A stretch of 64,000 bases of DNA from a virus (IMGVR_UViG_3300035502_000313:1-64000); one strand, 5' to 3'; shown: positions 10,633 through 44,539, numbered from the stretch's first letter. Notes: generated by a model not told the origin, from the sequence alone. Made by a program: numbers and translations.

Positions 10633-13600
10633 TTATATCATATTAGTTATAGCTTTAGATGCATATTTTAATGTATTTGCTGTAATTTTTGTAGAGTTAT
10701 CAGAGAATGGAGTACTATTATAATAGTCTGAGAAGTTGAATCCTTTTTCTGCTTTCATTACATAATCTAGATTAGATTTAAATACATTTAGACATGTAGC
10801 TCTAGTATCTATTAACTCTTTATATTGATCATTATTTAAACGTTTCTTAAGTTTCTTCTCAATACAATCATTAATATACCATAGCTTAGCTAGTTCGTAT
10901 TTCATTCCTTCTACATTACTAGAATTTCTATATACTTCTAATAACTGTACAGAATCAGCAATCTCATCTCCAAATGCTAAAGAACCTATACGAGATTTAT
11001 AAATAATTAAGTTACCTTCCTTATCAAACTCTATAGGAAATCTCTTTACTTCATTTAGAATAGCTATTGGTTCATGATATAATTCAGTACTCTCATTAGT
11101 TGATAGTATTCTATTAATTTTTTTCTCGTCTGCTAGATATACAGGTATCATATCTATAAGACTTCTTTTATATGCAGATAATTTTTTACCTGGCTTTACA
11201 TCTCTTTTTTGTTTTCTTGTATAGGAAGTTAACATTGAAGTTCCTTTTATTATGCAAGGTTCATTTTGTATATAGTCTACTGGTAAGTTGAGTACTTGTG
11301 TTCCTTCAAAGATACCAATATGACCTCTGTATTGTGAAGTATTTAGTTTATTTTTAAACCATTGTAAGAAATCTATTACAACTTCAGTTATATATTCGCT
11401 ATCAAAATCCTTCATACCATGTAAATTATCAGGAATGGTATTCTTTATAAAGTCAATTCTTTCAGCAAAATATTCAATTAATATATCTGGTATTTTACCA
11501 CCATTGAATTTATCTCCGTCAGGATAATGCCATTTACTATCAGGATTATGTATATTCAAGCAAACAATTGTTATATTATCTCCTGATACACAAATAGAAT
11601 TGTTGTATTTCTTACTATACTCATCTATAAGTGTAGTCTTTCCAGCACCAGAATGTCCTGTTATGAATAGTATATTATGATCACTATTAGGAGCTAGTAA
11701 TTCTATATTCAATTTTATATCATCTTTATTAACTAGAACAGATTCTTTCATATAACCTTTGAAATCTTTTAGAAGATTCCAATCATCTATATAAAATTTT
11801 CCTTTTATCCATTTAACGTTTCTAGTTGCTACTGTTTTCATTATGTCAAAGAAGTTCTTTTGATTATCAATACCATATTTTATAGTACGCATTTCTCTTC
11901 TAAATTCTGTTTTAAATACACCGTTATTCTTTATTATAACAGGACATTTTGATATCTTTGTGGTGTTTTGTTTGTTCGCACAATGAGCTATTTGTACACC
12001 TTCTATTACAAATCTTTTATTCTTATGAGAATTAGCATATTTAAATATATATTCGAATAGACCGTTGAATTCTTTTACACACATATCCCCATCTGATACA
12101 ATATTCTCAAATGTTATTTCTTCTAAATTATTGAGAGATGTAAATATACCAGACAATCCACCTTTAGAACTTATATACGAATCAATTACTTCACATTTAG
12201 TAGTATCCCAATTATTTACTTTAGCTCTTTGAAGTCGGTCTAATTCTACATATTCAGCATCATATGATTCACATATTTCTTTAGCAATAGTACTTTTTCC
12301 AGAACCAGATAATCCAGTAATCCACATAAGATTAGATTCGCCAGATTCCCAAAGCTCTATATTATAAAAAGAATCATTATATTCATGTGACTTTAAATCA
12401 GATACAGCTTCTTCAATACTAATGAATCCTTTCTTGAGAATTGACTTCATTTTATTTTCAACTCTTTTACCATTATACTTTGTAGCAATATCATTGAATA
12501 CTTCTATAATCTTATTAGGAACAGATTTTGCTGATGTATATAGTTGTCCTGGGTCTGGAATTTCTATATCTCCTACTAAATTAATACCGCCACTTTTAAG
12601 TACTGTATCTACAAATGTAGAACATACTTGATTGTATTCATTCTTGCTTACTTTATGGTCTATATGTAATATCTTATTGAAGAAGATTCTTAAATCAAAA
12701 GTAGTTTTGTTGTTCTTAAAATCTTCTACTTTTTCTTTTAACTTGTCTACTATATTATTAGGAGCAAAGAAAGCCATTACAGATATTATATTGTCTTTGA
12801 AAGATGATAGATTTTCTCTTACAAACCCAAAGTTTTCTCCTCTCATGTTATAACTATATACTTCTCCTAAAGTTGGATCAAATGATATACTAGCATGAGA
12901 ATAAGTACTTCCTGTAAAGAATTTTATACCTTGAGAAACTAATGGAGTTTTTCCTTGTGTAAATATTAATAACACAGGTTTATGTGTTGCACTAGTAGCT
13001 TGTTCTTCTACAATATCTTCATCTGATATAATATCATCAAGATTGATAAATATATCTCTTGGGATAGTTTCATCTAATATCTTTGATACTCGTTCAGATG
13101 CTTTTAATCTATTCTTTCTGTTGAATGGGATTTCTGGGTTCCATCCTAAATCAAGAATGGATTGTTTTCTAGCGAGTATTTTTTCTTCATCTCCAGACGA
13201 TTTAATATCATCAAAGTCAGAATATAACATGTCCAAAGTATCTATCCAATCCTTTCTATAGTCTTCAAATATATGGTCTAAACACATATCTTTATAAGAA
13301 TCAAACCATGTTGCTACTTTGACATTTGTTATAAGACCATCATTATCAGCATCTTTACAATAGAAATTATGATTACCATGTACACCTATATCAATTAATT
13401 CTGTAGGAGTGAAGTATGGTGTATCGTTAAATCTTCTATGTTGATTTGCTTTTATAGATTCGGATTCATTAATAGCTTGCATGTTATTGTATACTTGATT
13501 TACAAATTCTAACTTTGTAGTTATTAGATTCTCGCCATCTGAAGAATGTATAGTGTCTTGTTTTTCTACATTTATACATTTTAATGCTTTTGCCTTTAAA

Positions 13601-14289
13601 TCATTATATCTTTCTATATTAGACATGCCATAGATTTCTCTACATTTATCATCGGATTTCTTTCTATGATCATGAGATTGAGAATTAAAATCATGAAATG
13701 CTTTTTCAAGATTCTTTAAGTAATCTTCATGATTTAATCCTTTAATAGAACCTACTATATTAATATTGGTATCTATTTCATATTGGTCTGCAGCTTTATC
13801 TTTACTTACATCTTCAAATGTTCCTGCACCCCTTACTCTATAATAATTACCATCTGTAAAATCAGTATCTGAGTTTACCTCTACAGGTATACTTGAGTCT
13901 TCCTTTACTGGTGTAGTGATGTCATTGTCATCGTCTGGAATTTCATACTCATCGAAATCTCCAGAAGTAATAGAATCAGATATTTCGTCATCTTCAATAG
14001 ATTCATCATCGAATTCATATGATGTCATATCTTCTTCATTATCATCACCATATTTAGCATCTATATTACTCATCAGTTCAATTTTTAGAGATTCATAATG
14101 CTCTTGATTAGTCATGTTCCAAATTTCAATTGAACGATCATCACTTAGTCTTTGTTGTCTTGGAGTTAATTGAGATACAAACAATTCATATTGTCTTTCA
14201 AGTTCTTCCAAATCATCGGTGTCTTTTATGATAATATAATTAGTATCTCTCATAAACTTATTAGCAAGGACATTCTTATAAGTTTCCAT
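10633..14289 (-). CDS. Large virion protein carrying a permuted NlpC/P60 (YiiX-like) domain and two P-loop kinase-like domains
   Basis: YSHASISFD...CSTFV; ITGLSGSGKST...VIEGVQ; ITGHSGAGKTT...IFEGTQ; late promoter 14318-14330. Confidence 0.7.
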   Translation of the reverse strand: METYKNVLANKFMRDTNYIIIKDTDDLEELERQYELFVSQLTPRQQRLSDDRSIEIWNMTNQEHYESLKIELMSNIDAKYGDDNEEDMTSYEFDDESIEDDEISDSITSGDFDEYEIPDDDNDITTPVKEDSSIPVEVNSDTDFTDGNYYRVRGAGTFEDVSKDKAADQYEIDTNINIVGSIKGLNHEDYLKNLEKAFHDFNSQSHDHRKKSDDKCREIYGMSNIERYNDLKAKALKCINVEKQDTIHSSDGENLITTKLEFVNQVYNNMQAINESESIKANQHRRFNDTPYFTPTELIDIGVHGNHNFYCKDADNDGLITNVKVATWFDSYKDMCLDHIFEDYRKDWIDTLDMLYSDFDDIKSSGDEEKILARKQSILDLGWNPEIPFNRKNRLKASERVSKILDETIPRDIFINLDDIISDEDIVEEQATSATHKPVLLIFTQGKTPLVSQGIKFFTGSTYSHASISFDPTLGEVYSYNMRGENFGFVRENLSSFKDNIISVMAFFAPNNIVDKLKEKVEDFKNNKTTFDLRIFFNKILHIDHKVSKNEYNQVCSTFVDTVLKSGGINLVGDIEIPDPGQLYTSAKSVPNKIIEVFNDIATKYNGKRVENKMKSILKKGFISIEEAVSDLKSHEYNDSFYNIELWESGESNLMWITGLSGSGKSTIAKEICESYDAEYVELDRLQRAKVNNWDTTKCEVIDSYISSKGGLSGIFTSLNNLEEITFENIVSDGDMCVKEFNGLFEYIFKYANSHKNKRFVIEGVQIAHCANKQNTTKISKCPVIIKNNGVFKTEFRREMRTIKYGIDNQKNFFDIMKTVATRNVKWIKGKFYIDDWNLLKDFKGYMKESVLVNKDDIKLNIELLAPNSDHNILFITGHSGAGKTTLIDEYSKKYNNSICVSGDNITIVCLNIHNPDSKWHYPDGDKFNGGKIPDILIEYFAERIDFIKNTIPDNLHGMKDFDSEYITEVVIDFLQWFKNKLNTSQYRGHIGIFEGTQVLNLPVDYIQNEPCIIKGTSMLTSYTRKQKRDVKPGKKLSAYKRSLIDMIPVYLADEKKINRILSTNESTELYHEPIAILNEVKRFPIEFDKEGNLIIYKSRIGSLAFGDEIADSVQLLEVYRNSSNVEGMKYELAKLWYINDCIEKKLKKRLNNDQYKELIDTRATCLNVFKSNLDYVMKAEKGFNFSDYYNSTPFSDNSTKITANTLKYASKAITNMI

Positions 14290-14339
14290 ATAGATAATCT
14301 CCTTTCATTAGATAATATTATTAATAAGTTCAAAAGACG

Positions 14340-14550
14340 GTTTTGAACCCACACCAGTTAAGGTATGGGTTCAGAACAAGGTGAAATTTTCAAATCAAAA
14401 ATTAAGATTTAAAATAATAAAAAATAATGAGATAGAAAAAGAGAAGGATAGTTCTAAATCTTAAAAAGTAAAACAATTCACAACCACCAAGGAGTTTATC
14501 TACTTTCAAGTAAGTATTTACATAGTTTAGATATACTATCCTATCTCTTT
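14340..14550 (-). ncRNA. Candidate late small RNA B
   Basis: Late promoter 14549-14561, no ORF, long-range stem, terminator hairpin 14341-14376. Confidence 0.45.
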
Positions 14551-14578
14551 ACTATATAGTTATCATGTTTATAAAAAT

Positions 14579-14682
14579 AAAAAGAAAGGCTCCGGTACTC
14601 TGGGGGTGAGAGTACCGGATTTATAATACATCATGAAGAATTAATAAAACCACAAAGACTCATATTATTACATGAATCCTTT
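14579..14682 (-). ncRNA. Candidate late small RNA A
   Basis: Late promoter 14681-14693, 5' hairpin, terminator TCCGGTACTC/GAGTACCGGA. Confidence 0.45.
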
Positions 14683-14691
14683 ACTATATAG

Positions 14692-15852
14692 TTATGTATT
14701 TAATTCTAAATTTAATACAATACCAAATAAACTTAGAGTAATAGTTAATGCTTCTTTAATAGCTTCAGCATATTTTCTAATTTCATATTGAGCATGATTA
14801 TCAGTTCTAAGTTTTAAGAATGATACAAGATTGTATAAACTGAATGTCATATATAATCTACCACAATTTACATTAGAAGGAAGATATGCTCTAGCTTCTT
14901 CTTTCTTTAATCCGGCATCAGTAAGTTGAGTATATACAGATAGTAGTTCATTTGCTAATTCAAATAAATCTACTTCTTTCTTTTGTCCAAATAACGTAAT
15001 ATTGTATTTAGTACTATCATCGTAATCAGGTACAGGAATAGTAAATGTAGCATTCTTAGCATTTACATATCTCTGAGATTCTTGAGTAATTGCATTTCTA
15101 TGTCTTACCAATTGATGTGTTGCTGTTCTAGACATATTCTTAAATACAATTGTTACAGGAATGATATTAAAAAATACTTCTGGAGAAATATCACAGTCAT
15201 CAATTAAGTCTTGAATGTAATCCGTATCAATGCCAATATCTACTTTCTTAATTGGTTTAGTTCTATCAGTAGTTTGAATATTGACGGTCTTATCAAGAAT
15301 AAGAGTATCATATTGGATTCCTGTAGACGGTTCTAGAAGTTTATCATACTTACTACTTTCATTCTTGAATGTTTCTATATCAATAAATGTAGGTTTTGTT
15401 ATATACAATACAAATTTATTTCCGTATAATTCACCAACAGTATTTGACACGATAAGAGAATGAATAGTTCTTGTAATAGGATTGTTTTCGTAATCATTCT
15501 CTGTTGTATTGGTAAAGAAGAACTTATATGCTCTTATATTACCATTGACAATTAATACGTATGTATCATCTTCTTTATGAACAGTATAAAATTCAAGATA
15601 TCTTGAATATTCATATGTAATAACATCGGTAATATAACTAGGATCGGTTATATTAGATATCTTAAGAGCCATTCTTCCATGTTCTAGAATAGATTCATGT
15701 CCAGCGTTAACTCTTTTTTCAATATACTTTTTCTTTTCTAGATATCCTATACTTTTAGTATTATCATAACAACAGGTACATGCTTCATAGATATTAGCAA
15801 CATGATTGTTCTTATAGATAACTTCTCCATTGAGATTTTCAAAGTATTTCAT
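14692..15852 (-). CDS. thyX: Flavin-dependent thymidylate synthase ThyX (elongated)
   Basis: GHESILEH, SRTATHQLVRHR..TQESQRY, ARAYLP, LRTDNHAQYEIR. Confidence 0.92.
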   Translation of the reverse strand: MKYFENLNGEVIYKNNHVANIYEACTCCYDNTKSIGYLEKKKYIEKRVNAGHESILEHGRMALKISNITDPSYITDVITYEYSRYLEFYTVHKEDDTYVLIVNGNIRAYKFFFTNTTENDYENNPITRTIHSLIVSNTVGELYGNKFVLYITKPTFIDIETFKNESSKYDKLLEPSTGIQYDTLILDKTVNIQTTDRTKPIKKVDIGIDTDYIQDLIDDCDISPEVFFNIIPVTIVFKNMSRTATHQLVRHRNAITQESQRYVNAKNATFTIPVPDYDDSTKYNITLFGQKKEVDLFELANELLSVYTQLTDAGLKKEEARAYLPSNVNCGRLYMTFSLYNLVSFLKLRTDNHAQYEIRKYAEAIKEALTITLSLFGIVLNLELNT

Positions 15853-23300: not shown

Positions 23301-25602
23301 TATTAATACTATTGATATTAGCAGATGATACTGGTAACGGTTCATTCTTATCATCACTAGAATTTTCAAGCATCTCTTTTACAGATTTACCCTTGACTTG
23401 TTTCTTCTTAAGATCATCACTAAGAGAATTAATTCTTGCTTTACGAGTTGCAGATGCTTTAATCTCTGTAGATTCTTCATCAGATATATCTTTAATAAGA
23501 TTAGCTACATAATCATCATTATCAAGCTTATCTAATGCTTCATCTGTAGAAGTAGATGTTGCTGCAGCATCTTTAATTTTTTCAACAAGTTCTTCCTTCT
23601 TCTTATCTGTGATCTCTTTAGATACTTCTTTTTCAGTCTTAGGATTGTTATTTTTATCATTAACTGTTACTTTCTTATTAGTAGTAGTTTTAGGCTTGGG
23701 TTTCTCTGCAGTCTTACTAGCTTTAGGAGTATCTTCCTCATCATCAGGATTATTCTTAGCTAGTAAACCAGCCTTTCCTAAAGCACTATATAATTCAACT
23801 TTCTGAGACTTTTCAATCTTATCTACAATATCTGTAACAATTGCATCAGGAGTATCTTGAATCATTTCATCATCTGTAGGTACAATTCTATTAAAGATAT
23901 TATTAATATTAGATATGAATTTCTGAAGCTGATTCTTCTTAAAGGTAGAGAAATTAATCTTGAAATATGAATTAGAACCAAAGAAAAATACATCACAATC
24001 TCCGAATATTTTCTTTAGTTGTTCAAAATTATTTCTCTTAACTAGACGTATTATGAGGCTTACAGGATTCAATGATTTTGTATAATCAAATACATTTACA
24101 TTTTCTTGGTAGTAATCTAATACTGGAATAAAAATTGTTTTAACGTCATATGCTTTGTCTAGTTCTTTATTATTAAGAAAACGACGTAATGTCTCTGTAT
24201 ATATTCTAAGACCTTGTTCACCCATCTTATTATTATTTTCGATAAACAATCTGTTATAATAAGATATATCAAAGAATAGGTTTAATCCTTTATACATAGA
24301 TACATTTACTTTTGTATATTTAATAGTGGGACACTGAGACTTAACAACTTTATATACATCGAACAAATCTTTCTGAGTTTTGATTCTTTCGTTATACATA
24401 TATTTTCTAAGTCTATTGTCTACAGCATCTTCAGTAAATATCTCATCACCAAAGAAGAACGCTCTATCATCAAATCTAAATCCTTCAGAAGTAGAAGTTT
24501 CTGGAACTATTGCTTTAGAATCTTCTTCTTTCTTTGCTTCCATATTAACATATACTACAGGATAAGGATATTTCTCAGTTTTCTTACCAATAAAATGTAA
24601 AGCAAGTGCTCTATCAAAGAAATTTCCATCTTGAATTAAAGAAGTCTTTATTCTCTTGATCAATACTTTATCTCTATTAATAGAATATACTGGAACAACT
24701 CTTACTTTAAGTTGATTATTTAACATCCAGTCTCTATATGAGTAAATTAGAAATTTTGTGATTTCTTCTTTCTCATCCTCGTCATCAAAATAATCATCAT
24801 CAAGATATACTCCGAATTCATTACCACTAACAAAGTCTTTATAACCAACACCAAATCCAGCAAGATTATCGTTAGCATCATAACACTTTACTAAGTAATT
24901 AGCATTCTTAAACATATCGGATACATTCTTATAATCTCTCATATCCTTAACAAGTTTTTGACATTCTTTAGATTCCTTCTTTATATCATCTTTTCTAAAG
25001 TAAGCAAATCTATAATCTGTCATTAACTCTATAGGAATTCTACCAGAAGTATTTACAGAAGCTTCTTTGAAAGATCTATAATACTTAGAGAATTTATTAT
25101 TCTCACCAACTTCAATATCAGTAATTTCAAACTCTTTTAGTTTCTTCATGATATTTTTAGCAAGGGTCTTTTCATCTTCTTTAGGGCAATGATTGAACAT
25201 TTTGATTGCTTGTCTTACATGTTCTTCATCATTAATAGGATATGATCTTGTTCTAGGAATACCAAAATCACTATCAGATAATGATTTTCTATCCTTAGAA
25301 GATAACTTAGCTTCATTGGTAAAAGCTTTAACAGTTTCATCTTCATACTGTACAAACTCTTGTATTTCACCAGTATCTGCTTTAATAATAGCATTAATAG
25401 ATTTATCAATATAATATGATTTAAACCAGTTACGATTTATAATCATATTACTATTAATCATATCTATAGAAGATGATATGTCTGGAGTTAATAGATATAT
25501 AAGACTCCCATGCTTATTATCATCTTGATTTAAAGGTACAAATAATTTATTAGATCCTTTATACATCCTTAAATTTTTCATATCTTTAATGTGTATAGCC
25601 AT
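20392..25602 (-). CDS. Virion RNA polymerase beta subunit (large part) with N-terminal accessory domains
   Basis: DDPFRLAMSYVQ, GFEDSCIVS, VGDKLIFLGAQKGV, PIDAIASMVSFDKRM match RNAP beta motifs; late promoter 25628-25640. Confidence 0.85.
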   Translation of the reverse strand: MAIHIKDMKNLRMYKGSNKLFVPLNQDDNKHGSLIYLLTPDISSSIDMINSNMIINRNWFKSYYIDKSINAIIKADTGEIQEFVQYEDETVKAFTNEAKLSSKDRKSLSDSDFGIPRTRSYPINDEEHVRQAIKMFNHCPKEDEKTLAKNIMKKLKEFEITDIEVGENNKFSKYYRSFKEASVNTSGRIPIELMTDYRFAYFRKDDIKKESKECQKLVKDMRDYKNVSDMFKNANYLVKCYDANDNLAGFGVGYKDFVSGNEFGVYLDDDYFDDEDEKEEITKFLIYSYRDWMLNNQLKVRVVPVYSINRDKVLIKRIKTSLIQDGNFFDRALALHFIGKKTEKYPYPVVYVNMEAKKEEDSKAIVPETSTSEGFRFDDRAFFFGDEIFTEDAVDNRLRKYMYNERIKTQKDLFDVYKVVKSQCPTIKYTKVNVSMYKGLNLFFDISYYNRLFIENNNKMGEQGLRIYTETLRRFLNNKELDKAYDVKTIFIPVLDYYQENVNVFDYTKSLNPVSLIIRLVKRNNFEQLKKIFGDCDVFFFGSNSYFKINFSTFKKNQLQKFISNINNIFNRIVPTDDEMIQDTPDAIVTDIVDKIEKSQKVELYSALGKAGLLAKNNPDDEEDTPKASKTAEKPKPKTTTNKKVTVNDKNNNPKTEKEVSKEITDKKKEELVEKIKDAAATSTSTDEALDKLDNDDYVANLIKDISDEESTEIKASATRKARINSLSDDLKKKQVKGKSVKEMLENSSDDKNEPLPVSSANINSINNDQWDNLQYINFNEEYDVDEDIMAILDFFSTRTVPVGIRSVDVEDTTTSEDLKETWTVQCEDISGTRFQLKFDIPKLKNNRFMRIKGNDKTINAQLMNLPIIKTEFDTAQITTNYNKIFFYTFGSALGKSNVIAGKIVKAISKYTGKSITYMTGNNAITALKYEIPIDYADLGKNFSYIKYKNTTFYFDQDKIREQYPDKIDMSKGLPIGYDGSNIIYSDGSKLCTAIIAEKLCEDTEFATLFDEAKPSVKYAYSQASILNTKIPVIVICSYCEGLIKTINKAGISYEITDKRPTKLDLTQYDIIKFKDGFITYKIDYNSSMFMNGLKECNTEDYSIKEINTKTMWTEMLDHFGGRIKADGLDNFYDLLFDPITKRVCKVYDLPDEFCDGLIYASNLLSDTKFNKHTDISGNRFRTNEIIAGYAYKELSRSYADYRTKLKKTGKATMTIKQSAILDAIMADSTASDASTINDLWYAEANNTVSFKGLSGLNSDRSYSLEKRTYDESMTNIIGMSTGFAGTVGVSRVVTTNSNISGKRGYISDNSNTKKNMNDVNTMTTAENLTPMCTTHDDPFRLAMSYVQRTKHDMRVAGGDPLLITNGMDDALSTFTPDYFSFNAKKDGRIIERDDDHIVVQYDDGSVDFVDLNNKVYKNSDGGFYTSIKLSPAKNLGTKVKKGQLIAYDPMSYTVNCGYDDSATYNQGTLAKIAIITSDKGFEDSCIVSSYISDALSSNVIMEVPVTLSKNTNVFNMVSVGDSVQEGDPLLIIQNTFEDNDVNVLLKNLVDDEDTVTSLGRIPIKSNNTGIVEEISIYRTCDLEDMSPSLKKIVTEYERKKNAKAKQISKYNDNLAKQYTAQKLPQDGKLKNIEDGVLIEFYVSYKDDFSVGDKLIFLGAQKGVAKEVVPAGQEPTSSYRPDEPIDAIASMVSFDKRMCCAPLQYTLAGKGLVELDRQIKDIMGIKQEYTIRHDFK

Positions 25603-43705: not shown

Positions 43706-44539
43706 ATGAATAATCAAGTTATTGGAAGTATTATTCTTGAAGCTGCATCTAATCCAATTGATTTGAATGTTATTGCTGAAAATAATGGTAAAGTTGAAGC
43801 TACAGGTATTATTCAGGATGCTGATGTAGAAAACAGAAATGGACGTATCTATGAAGAGAAAGATTTAAAGCCTGAGGTTTATTCAGATAGAATTCAGAAA
43901 GAACTTATTCCTACTGGTAATATGAGAGGACATGATGGTCACCCATCTTCTTCTGAACTTTCTGTACAGTCTGTTATTGATCCTAAGTTATGCTCTGTTC
44001 AATTCACTAAGATTTGGATGGAAGGTAAAGATATCCATGCTAACTTTAAGGGTACTAACAATGACCTAGGAAGAGCTTTTAATGCTGATCTTCTTGAGGG
44101 TTGCAAACCATCTTTCTCTTTAAGAGCTTTAGGTTCTGTAGATAGAGAAAGAAATGGTAAGTGCTATGTAAGAAATATCAGAATCATTACATGGGATAGA
44201 GTTATTTTCCCTTCTCATAAGAGAGCATATACAACTGGTTTTGTATCACCTAAGAACGAGGGTGCTATTACTGAATCAGCACAAATGTATAATACTCAAG
44301 CTATTAATGAGAACGGTATTCTTATTCCTATTGTGAATAAACAGGTAGTAGACTATATAAAGACTGAGTCTGCTAATGTAAAGAGTATTGTAAATACATT
44401 CGATACATTATATGAATCTGCTATTATTTGTAATGGTGGTAAGAATGTTCAACTTCAGACAACTGATGGTGATAGAATCCTTATAAATCTTGAACAGTAT
44501 ATTCAGGATGAGATTATGAATTATTGTTATAATAACTAA
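43706..44539 (+). CDS. Prohead core protease (T4 gp21/phiKZ gp175 type)
   Basis: GIIQDADVENRNGRIY, GHDGHP, FSLRALG, ITWDRVIFPSH. Confidence 0.9.
   Translation: MNNQVIGSIILEAASNPIDLNVIAENNGKVEATGIIQDADVENRNGRIYEEKDLKPEVYSDRIQKELIPTGNMRGHDGHPSSSELSVQSVIDPKLCSVQFTKIWMEGKDIHANFKGTNNDLGRAFNADLLEGCKPSFSLRALGSVDRERNGKCYVRNIRIITWDRVIFPSHKRAYTTGFVSPKNEGAITESAQMYNTQAINENGILIPIVNKQVVDYIKTESANVKSIVNTFDTLYESAIICNGGKNVQLQTTDGDRILINLEQYIQDEIMNYCYNN

Follow-up and report, generated by a model that had tools for sequence, protein, structure and literature searches.

The window analysed in this study is a 64,000-nucleotide stretch of viral DNA (IMGVR_UViG_3300035502_000313:1-64000), which opens a virus record of 212,182 bp that carries direct terminal repeats and has about 30% G+C. 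The virus is an uncultured jumbo phage of the gut or rumen, and its closest cultured relatives are the AR9/PBS1-type and the Staphylococcus jumbo phages, at about 31% identity in an RNA polymerase beta subunit. We focused on a 1218-residue open reading frame (ORF) on the minus strand (10633-14289), which the initial annotation had described as a late virion polyprotein carrying a peptidase and two kinases that the prohead protease would free for injection; the ORF and all the motifs quoted there were found at the positions given. The data presented below are compatible with the hypothesis that this protein is a head-internal cargo carrier, cut in its linkers by the prohead protease, a reading to which we assign a probability of about 0.5.

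A word-indexed search returned 388 relatives of the protein, mostly on contigs of 210-236 kb, and a phmmer search with residues 1-627 as the query returned 554 cluster representatives (clusters at 50% identity) at E <= 1e-3. Mapping the pieces of the protein onto these relatives gave the family architecture, namely a duplicated helical domain, a helical core, a papain-like domain with a Cys-His pair, a variable slot and a conserved C-terminal domain (Table 1). Specifically, pairwise alignments showed that residues 1 to about 627 are common to the relatives, at 50-76% identity, and that residues from about 1070 to 1218 are 71-89% identical in most of the close ones; the middle differs. The C-terminal domain was also found in most distant relatives. 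For the structure we used a model of P0122, a homolog at 59% identity, with a mean predicted local distance difference test score (pLDDT) of 79 and a predicted template modelling score (pTM) of 0.35. The model has the appearance of beads on a string, in which confident domains at residues 1-87, 162-245, 295-418, 447-636 and 652-787 are joined by linkers with a pLDDT below 50. In the same genome, jackhmmer searches detected no further paralogs of the scaffold domains, each being present in a single copy, and Pfam searches with five pieces of the protein returned nothing for the N-terminal 430 residues, the papain-like part and the C-terminal domain.

Table 1. Coordinates of the polyprotein domains, of the flanking signals and of the two other loci of the window discussed in the text.
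Feature	Coordinates	Strand	Remarks
Whole ORF (P0001)	10633..14289	(-)	1218 residues, no internal stops, one chain of ~140 kDa
N1a, first copy of the duplicated helical domain, residues 1-90	14020..14289	(-)	N1a/N1b match by jackhmmer
Acidic disordered linker, residues 91-160, PVKE at 127-130	13810..14019	(-)	Model pLDDT <50
N1b, second helical copy, residues 161-250	13540..13809	(-)	jackhmmer, model
Linker, residues 251-275, ends AINE 272-275	13465..13539	(-)	Low pLDDT
Helical core domain, residues 276-405	13075..13464	(-)	Kept across the family
Disordered linker, residues 406-429, ends IVEE 426-429	13003..13074	(-)	Low-pLDDT block
Permuted papain-like domain (NlpC/P60 superfamily, C92/YiiX-type), residues 430-627, ends ISIEE 623-627	12409..13002	(-)	Profile, fold
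Slot module 1, P-loop NTPase, kinase-like, residues 628-849, Walker A 659-667, ends YMKE 846-849	11743..12408	(-)	
Slot module 2, paralogous P-loop NTPase, kinase-like, residues 850-1066, Walker A 878-886, ends STNE 1063-1066	11092..11742	(-)	
14-residue spacer, residues 1067-1080, ends ILNE 1077-1080	11050..11091	(-)	Similar spacer in relatives
Conserved C-terminal domain, residues 1081-1218, short beta hairpin and three-helix bundle	10636..11049	(-)	Alignments, models
Late-type (non-virion RNA polymerase) promoter-like motif AACTTATTAATA	14319..14330	(-)	41 nt 5' of the ATG
Hairpin directly 5' of the promoter, resembling a terminator, at the end of the ORF-less unit before it	14345..14372	(-)	Sequence reading
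Intrinsic-terminator-like hairpin after the stop codon	10597..10622	(-)	CCAGAGAGG ... CCTCTCTGG then TATAATTTT
T4 gp21-type prohead protease, proposed processing enzyme	43706..44539	(+)	Pfam Peptidase_S77, E 9.8e-12, above cut-off
Passenger module in the large RNA polymerase beta-type subunit, residues 65-190 of a 1736-residue ORF	25033..25410	(-)	Flanks FTNE↓A and SFKE↓A

The SHASI...CSTFV pair had been taken to mark a permuted NlpC/P60 domain, and both profile and fold searches agree with this assignment, placing the domain in the C92/YiiX type. Specifically, His465 (SHASI, 464) comes before Cys556 (CSTFV, 556), both residues being invariant in 60 homologs, and the family profile matches the 'cysteine peptidase' 3kw0_A of B. 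cereus with an E-value of 2.5e-7 and both motifs aligned. A Foldseek search with the P0122 model retrieved 3kw0 (TM-score 0.60, E 7e-4), followed by YiiX (2if6) and by the secreted wall hydrolase TseH (6v98). C92 amidases are among the matches in the viral fold library, and many phages and giant viruses have the domain as a stand-alone protein. When residues 431-640 were submitted to hmmscan no Peptidase_C92 match was listed, a single divergent sequence being weaker than the family profile. The likeness to the YaeF/YiiX group (MEROPS C92: 3kw0, E. coli YiiX 2if6 and poxvirus OPG091/G6R) thus covers the His-before-Cys order, the aligned SH and CS motifs and the fold, whereas the domain is here embedded in a chain of 5 to 10 domains. 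To our knowledge, no member of the C92 group has a defined substrate. This domain is the most conserved part of the scaffold and occurs in essentially all relatives; with its invariant His and Cys it belongs to the fixed frame, so that the earlier proposal of a swappable peptidase cargo had to be abandoned.

Searches against cultured phages gave no match for the whole protein (tblastn against 50,697 records), for the homolog P0182 (cultured-phage collection) or for the family profile (AR9 record), and distant members of the family matched only a stand-alone papain-like domain in Fusobacterium phages. The sole cultured-phage relative of the domain that was found is JDFnp1_82 of the 180-kb Fusobacterium phage JD-Fnp1 (ON464759.1), a stand-alone 'cysteine peptidase' of 290 residues encoded directly after the gyrase A gene. 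In addition, P0144, P0163, P0221, P0250 and P0246 carry two to three tandem papain-like copies without the other scaffold domains, so that the same enzyme is here the basis of another architecture.

The main slot, located between the papain-like and the C-terminal domains, contains from 0 to 4 or more modules across the relatives. Base forms such as P0122 (787 residues) and P0214 (485 residues) have no insert, and others have up to about 850 inserted residues. On the basis of Pfam, the slot types found in relatives include P-loop kinase-like, GNAT, DNA-ligase-type Zn-ribbon and calcineurin-like phosphoesterase modules, and several inserts match nothing. In the protein under study the slot holds two paralogous P-loop modules, with the Walker A motifs GLSGSGKST at 659 and GHSGAGKTT at 878. 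Pfam matches to module 1 are limited to the P-loop, only APS_kinase exceeding the cut-off (21.7 versus 21.1 bits, module alone), and sequence searches of the PDB with either module matched the P-loop region only. An AlphaFold2 model of module 2 has a pLDDT of about 80 over the P-loop domain, and its best Foldseek matches, adenylate kinase 5 and dephospho-CoA kinases, are weak (E 1.5e-3, TM-score about 0.42). Based on motifs and on this predicted fold, 'kinase-like' appears a fair description of both modules; of the 'two kinases' originally proposed the Walker A motifs stand, while the identity as kinases is reduced to a weak adenylate-kinase/dephospho-CoA-kinase-like fold match.

The homology of module 1 to relatives stops at about residue 852, from which point relatives go on with GNAT or Zn-ribbon modules. 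Kinase-like modules occupy the N-terminus in P0150, P0225 and P0259 and precede the papain-like domain in P0258, and P0132 has an extra module in the linker around residues 251-275. The alignment of orthologs displays the conserved ends and the variable Glu-flanked middle that the initial annotation predicted, slot contents vary among relatives rather than being invariant, and its notion of swappable modules holds for the slot (the two P-loop modules here) and at times for other linkers. Module exchange between relatives, and the presence of linkers resembling cut sites, are solid observations.

Traces of this exchange were also noticed in individual relatives. A module of about 90 residues (KSAREF, DANYFIVTDGASG) with no known match appears in three different scaffold linkers (P0132, P0030, P0037, P0102, P0100 and P0139), indicating that modules move between linkers as well as between phages. 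In P0100 the tail of the papain-like domain and the STSILNE spacer are repeated mid-slot, and in P0027 only the first 20 residues or so of a GNAT module remain before a cut-like site; these partial duplications and remnants indicate that recombination or deletion happens at the linkers. The slot of P0139 holds a calcineurin-like phosphoesterase beside a P-loop kinase-like module, a pair that recalls the polynucleotide kinase-phosphatase enzymes of RNA repair and that we take as a lead only.

The linkers and module boundaries share a hydrophobic-x-Glu motif, after which the chain may be cut. The putative cuts would fall after nucleotides 13003 (IVEE), 12409 (ISIEE), 11743 (YMKE), 11092 (STNE) and 11050 (ILNE). 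Among these sites, all proposed previously, STNE keeps its position but is a weak version of the motif, with Thr at P3; relatives have INKE, VKE, FKE or INE there. When contexts were anchored on domains, hydrophobic-x-Glu was found to precede the C-terminal domain in 149 of 154 distinct contexts and to close the papain-like domain in 151 of 166, the background being 12.8% of random 5-residue windows. Taking the ends of BLAST alignments as module boundaries gave a modest enrichment (46% versus 26%), because alignment ends are noisy, and we relied on the domain-anchored counts instead. In an alignment of 60 homologs, which are diverse members at 24-46% identity, the only sites both conserved and low in pLDDT are the equivalents of IVEE (48/60), ISIEE (47/60) and ILNE (58/60). 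In closer relatives (at least 50% identity) the PVKE site is kept as P-[VIM]-K-E, and the column of AINE-275 reads [IV]NE, with other hydrophobic-x-Glu forms in distant relatives. Seven cut sites are probable in the chain, instead of the five first proposed.

The surroundings of the motif are equally regular. The sequence shared after the papain-like domain ends in Ile/Leu/Val-x-Glu (SIEE, DILE, AIDE, SINE, AINE), and in 60 distant members the end of this domain, [IVL]-[KN]-E, is followed by 0-70 variable residues, a hydrophobic-x-Glu site and the C-terminal domain. P3 is Leu, Ile or Val and P2 is often Asn, Lys or Glu; P1' is Val or Ala before the C-terminal domain, and Ser or Ala after the papain-like domain. 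Kinase-like modules begin after [SV]-[IVL]-N-E and end with [IL]-G-E or M-K-E, GNAT modules end with hydrophobic-x-Glu, and in relatives the short spacer between the last module and the C-terminal domain is commonly STSILNE. Homology between relatives breaks at these sites. DNA homology cannot explain the motif, because at 25-30% identity only the three-residue pattern is kept and not its flanks, which points to selection on the peptide.

This last observation bears on an unlikely yet weighty alternative, according to which the protein would be an uncut multidomain cytoplasmic enzyme, for instance a scaffold tethering nucleotide- or RNA-directed enzymes, with linkers conserved for folding, docking or recombination. 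The ORF is surrounded by genes for thymidylate synthase, a deoxynucleoside monophosphate (dNMP)-kinase-like protein, dCTP deaminase, RNA polymerase subunits, SbcC, ligase and topoisomerase, and the first three of these neighbours would suit such an enzyme, as would the adenylate-kinase-like P-loop fold in nucleotide metabolism. The recombination seen at the linkers of P0100 and P0027 goes in the same direction, and no link to virion proteins was found. However, GNAT, Zn-ribbon, phosphoesterase and unmatched modules do not suit one metabolic pathway, the retention of a bare three-residue pattern leaves DNA homology no explanatory role, and selection by a protease or another trans-acting reader would be expected to produce just such a short invariant motif, disordered and repeated from linker to linker.

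A candidate for such a protease is encoded in the same window, 30 kb from the polyprotein ORF. The gene, whose presence had been foreseen, matches phrog_207 and phrog_3014 ('head maturation protease') in addition to Peptidase_S77, and has a canonical late promoter. T4 gp21, the type member, recognises (L/I)-x-E and also cuts itself in the tail beyond its catalytic domain. The linker motif described here follows this T4 gp21-type pattern, the specificity of the present protease being assumed by analogy. In the C-terminal 90 residues of the protease, beyond the catalytic domain, we noted ITE↓S, INE↓N and LYE↓S, which are possible self-cleavage sites; the SPN3US protease is known to cleave itself (PMC7411985). 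An attempt to read the specificity of the enzyme from the major capsid protein (genome 168809-170839, plus strand) was abandoned: six orthologs share candidate sites (LEE↓A/G, VLE↓H), among which the cut site is not distinguishable from sequence. The N-terminal 100 residues of this capsid protein are highly conserved in six related phages, and maturation might take place there at SILEE↓A/G (about 37-41) and at AVLE↓H (about 97-100; AINE↓H in the most distant phage). The T4 Gp23 Pfam model has no match in this phage.

The large RNA polymerase beta-type subunit of the phage has one module type in common with the polyprotein family. Specifically, the passenger module of this subunit, flanked by motif sites, is 37-45% identical (blastp) to modules in P0194, P0168 and P0236. 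The presumed virion polymerase subunit is without a papain-like domain, and a motif-flanked module shared with it argues for a trans-acting protease common to head proteins.

The same observations have to be set against an improbable alternative, self-processing, in which the papain-like domain would cut the linkers in cis or in trans and release, whether cytoplasmic or within the head, would not depend on head maturation. The domain is universal and best conserved, with invariant His and Cys, lies directly upstream of the main slot, and occurs in two or three tandem copies in P0144, P0163 and P0221; moreover, embedded peptidases have been proposed to autoprocess polyvalent proteins (PMC5512222). 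On the other hand, the structures closest to the domain belong to amidases of the YiiX type and to an effector that hydrolyses peptidoglycan, not to protein endopeptidases, and a hydrophobic P3 with Glu at P1 is the textbook gp21 pattern. In addition, the motif flanks the same module type in a polymerase subunit that has no papain-like domain, and the tail of the prohead protease itself contains such sites. An extended version of this idea, which we regard as something of a long shot, is a self-contained system of polyprotein expression and delivery in a DNA phage, in which the papain-like domain would cut after Glu in every linker and the linkers would double as recombination joints, so that effector cassettes could be shuffled with the presumed virion RNA polymerase in much the way that polymorphic toxin systems exchange their tips. 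If true, this would be the first protein-endopeptidase role for the YiiX/C92 group.

The papain-like domain could also be read as the active part of a virion entry enzyme, namely a peptidoglycan endopeptidase helping the DNA through the wall, with the remainder of the chain being structural and the other modules directed to wall or envelope. NlpC/P60 enzymes classically cut after D-Glu in peptidoglycan. In some jumbo phages NlpC/P60 domains are associated with the tail (PMC7824862), and the fold search brought up TseH, a wall hydrolase that is secreted. Against this, we know of no demonstrated wall activity for the permuted YiiX type, and the slot modules (P-loop kinase-like, GNAT) need cytoplasmic cofactors. 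We consider an entry enzyme very improbable on the whole; it is, in any case, compatible with the head-cargo reading rather than opposed to it.

As far as timing is concerned, the AR9 consensus sequences are AAATATATATTAT-N6-G for early and AACA-N6-TA/G for late promoters (PMC5312081). Upstream of the polyprotein gene, AAC[AT]-N6-TA was found at -39 to -46 in 8/8 orthologous loci, and the more distant loci have the canonical AACA; a hairpin equivalent to the one 5' of the promoter is located at the same place in orthologous loci. The promoter agrees with the AR9 late consensus and with the spacing at the protease, major capsid protein and RNA polymerase beta-type genes of this phage. Specifically, AACATnnnTATA lies 35-45 nt before the ATG of the genes for the protease, the major capsid protein, the RNA polymerase beta-type subunit, a 5000-residue protein and virion structural proteins, and the early cassettes of this phage carry ATATATAATAnnAGTGAGTA. 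Judged on its promoter motif, the polyprotein gene belongs to the non-early class, and the AR9-type late promoter kept across orthologous loci is in line with the description of the protein as 'late'.

Some further signals were noted in the upstream region. The 16-mer TAACTATATAGTAAAG (AACT-N6-TA, a variant of the late promoter) occurs twice 5' of the polyprotein gene, at 14545-14560 and 14677-14692 on the minus strand, and again at genome position 197964 on the plus strand. The copy at 14545-14560, about 270 nt 5' of the gene, was considered as its promoter and rejected, being neither canonical early nor canonical late; the relevant element is instead the conserved motif at -41. After each upstream copy come a stretch without ORFs and a hairpin, the first stretch being closed by a clear terminator at about 14580-14625, and the stretches led by TAACTATATAGTAAAG are candidate small non-coding units. 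The AAGGAGG ribosome-binding sites are strong and uniform genome-wide, with a 15-fold enrichment 5' of ORFs, and these features indicate a host of the low-GC Gram-positive type, probably among the Firmicutes.

All together, proteolytic release is the most economical reading of the domain architecture, of the module exchange and of a gp21-like linker motif that is both conserved and disordered. The choice of the prohead protease as the cutter, and hence packaging in the head, is proposed on the basis of the specificity and of the module shared with the polymerase subunit, and by analogy we infer that the polyprotein is packaged, cleaved and ejected. In the proposed mechanism, a promoter of the late class would direct the synthesis of one 140-kDa chain of independently folded domains, which the conserved scaffold would bring into the assembling prohead. 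There, the prohead protease would cut after hydrophobic-x-Glu, before a small residue, in the disordered linkers; the freed enzymes would stay in the head and accompany the DNA into the host, where host takeover or counter-defence would be their early task.

Several observations weigh against this head-cargo proposal. Fold searches with the N-terminal, core and C-terminal domains returned generic helical bundles only and no known head, scaffold or ejection protein, although such matches of predicted models do not establish new folds either. No proteomics can be borrowed, because no homolog was detected in the cultured phages searched. The neighbours of the gene belong mostly to nucleotide and DNA metabolism, and the dCTP deaminase gene has the same promoter class, so that this class alone does not make the polyprotein structural. 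The 1218-residue protein contains 32 hydrophobic-x-Glu sites in a proteome rich in Ile, Asn, Glu and Lys, for which reason the presence of the motif proves little and its conservation is what counts; the Glu beside the C-terminal domain could, in turn, belong to that fold. Finally, proteases of the phiKZ type favour Ala, Ser or Gly at P3 and not Ile or Leu (PMC7411985).

Comparison with known systems helps to place the proposed carrier. In phage T4 the cargo genes are polymorphic among the T-even phages. T4 gp21 cuts the internal proteins and Alt, which have a short N-terminal capsid targeting sequence, remain inside the head and pass into the host with the DNA on ejection (PMC7411985). The likeness to IPI-III and Alt lies in tag-loaded, gp21-cut and ejected proteins; here a protease of the gp21 family is encoded, and loading is proposed. 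In contrast, T4 has a separate gene for each cargo, an N-terminal tag of 10-20 residues and a single cut, whereas here several enzymes are fused, a large multi-domain scaffold frames the chain on either side and each linker has a site resembling a cut site; there is no sequence similarity.

A second comparison is offered by the ejection proteins of SPN3US and phiKZ (gp53, gp54 and gp47; protease gp245 or gp175), which likewise belong to jumbo phages with a T4-like prohead protease. In SPN3US, at least eight head proteins are substrates of gp245, which recognises a gp21-like A-x-E, and the ejection proteins have long propeptides thought to target them into the prohead; in both phages there are several cuts following x-x-Glu, and Ser is the preferred P1' residue (PMC7411985; PMC10052503). 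The cuts mapped in SPN3US, self-cleavage of the protease aside, all remove N-terminal propeptides (PMC10052503). These systems differ from the present one by the use of Ala at P3, their descriptions mention neither enzyme modules that are set free nor a swappable slot, and no homology was found.

Polyvalent proteins also combine unrelated enzyme domains (GNAT, kinases, peptidases) in large chains, which have been proposed to travel with the DNA and to act at invasion, possibly after proteolytic release (PMC5512222). They are defined by 2-15 disparate, mostly enzymatic domains, and the papain-like and two P-loop domains found here, together with the GNAT, phosphoesterase and Zn-ribbon modules of relatives, resemble this composition. 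Polyvalent proteins contain zincin-like peptidases, kinases of the protein-kinase fold and MuF or portal fusions, and are usually encoded beside virion genes (PMC5512222). The polyprotein differs from these in its permuted papain-like domain and P-loop modules, in a scaffold of its own, in a uniform linker motif of the prohead-protease type and in its metabolic neighbours, and the relatives examined showed no fusion to MuF or portal proteins. The passenger loop of the RNA polymerase beta-type subunit has in common with the polyprotein variable modules with hydrophobic-x-Glu flanks and one module type; there, however, the modules ride on a polymerase subunit whose job is known, while the polyprotein carrier has no other recognisable function.

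In conclusion, known ingredients, namely the capsid-targeted, protease-trimmed and ejected proteins of T4, SPN3US and phiKZ, polymorphic cargo and polyvalent proteins, are here combined, and what differs is the fusion of enzymes in one precursor, the uniform cleavable linker, the two-ended scaffold and a module pool shared with a polymerase subunit. The analysis gives an architecture to a family of more than 500 clusters whose database labels are at best 'cysteine peptidase' or 'adenylate kinase'. If the polyprotein is loaded and cut as proposed, the role of the prohead protease would widen from the trimming of propeptides to the release of several enzymes from one precursor, and candidate injected effectors would be at hand in the slot modules, for several of which no fold is known. 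The arrangement would also provide a natural design for packing foreign proteins into large phage capsids. Abundant jumbo phages of gut and rumen would then possess an evolvable cargo bay, made of a fixed scaffold, a standard linker and an enzyme slot, and this would explain how their first-minute weapons against host defences diversify.

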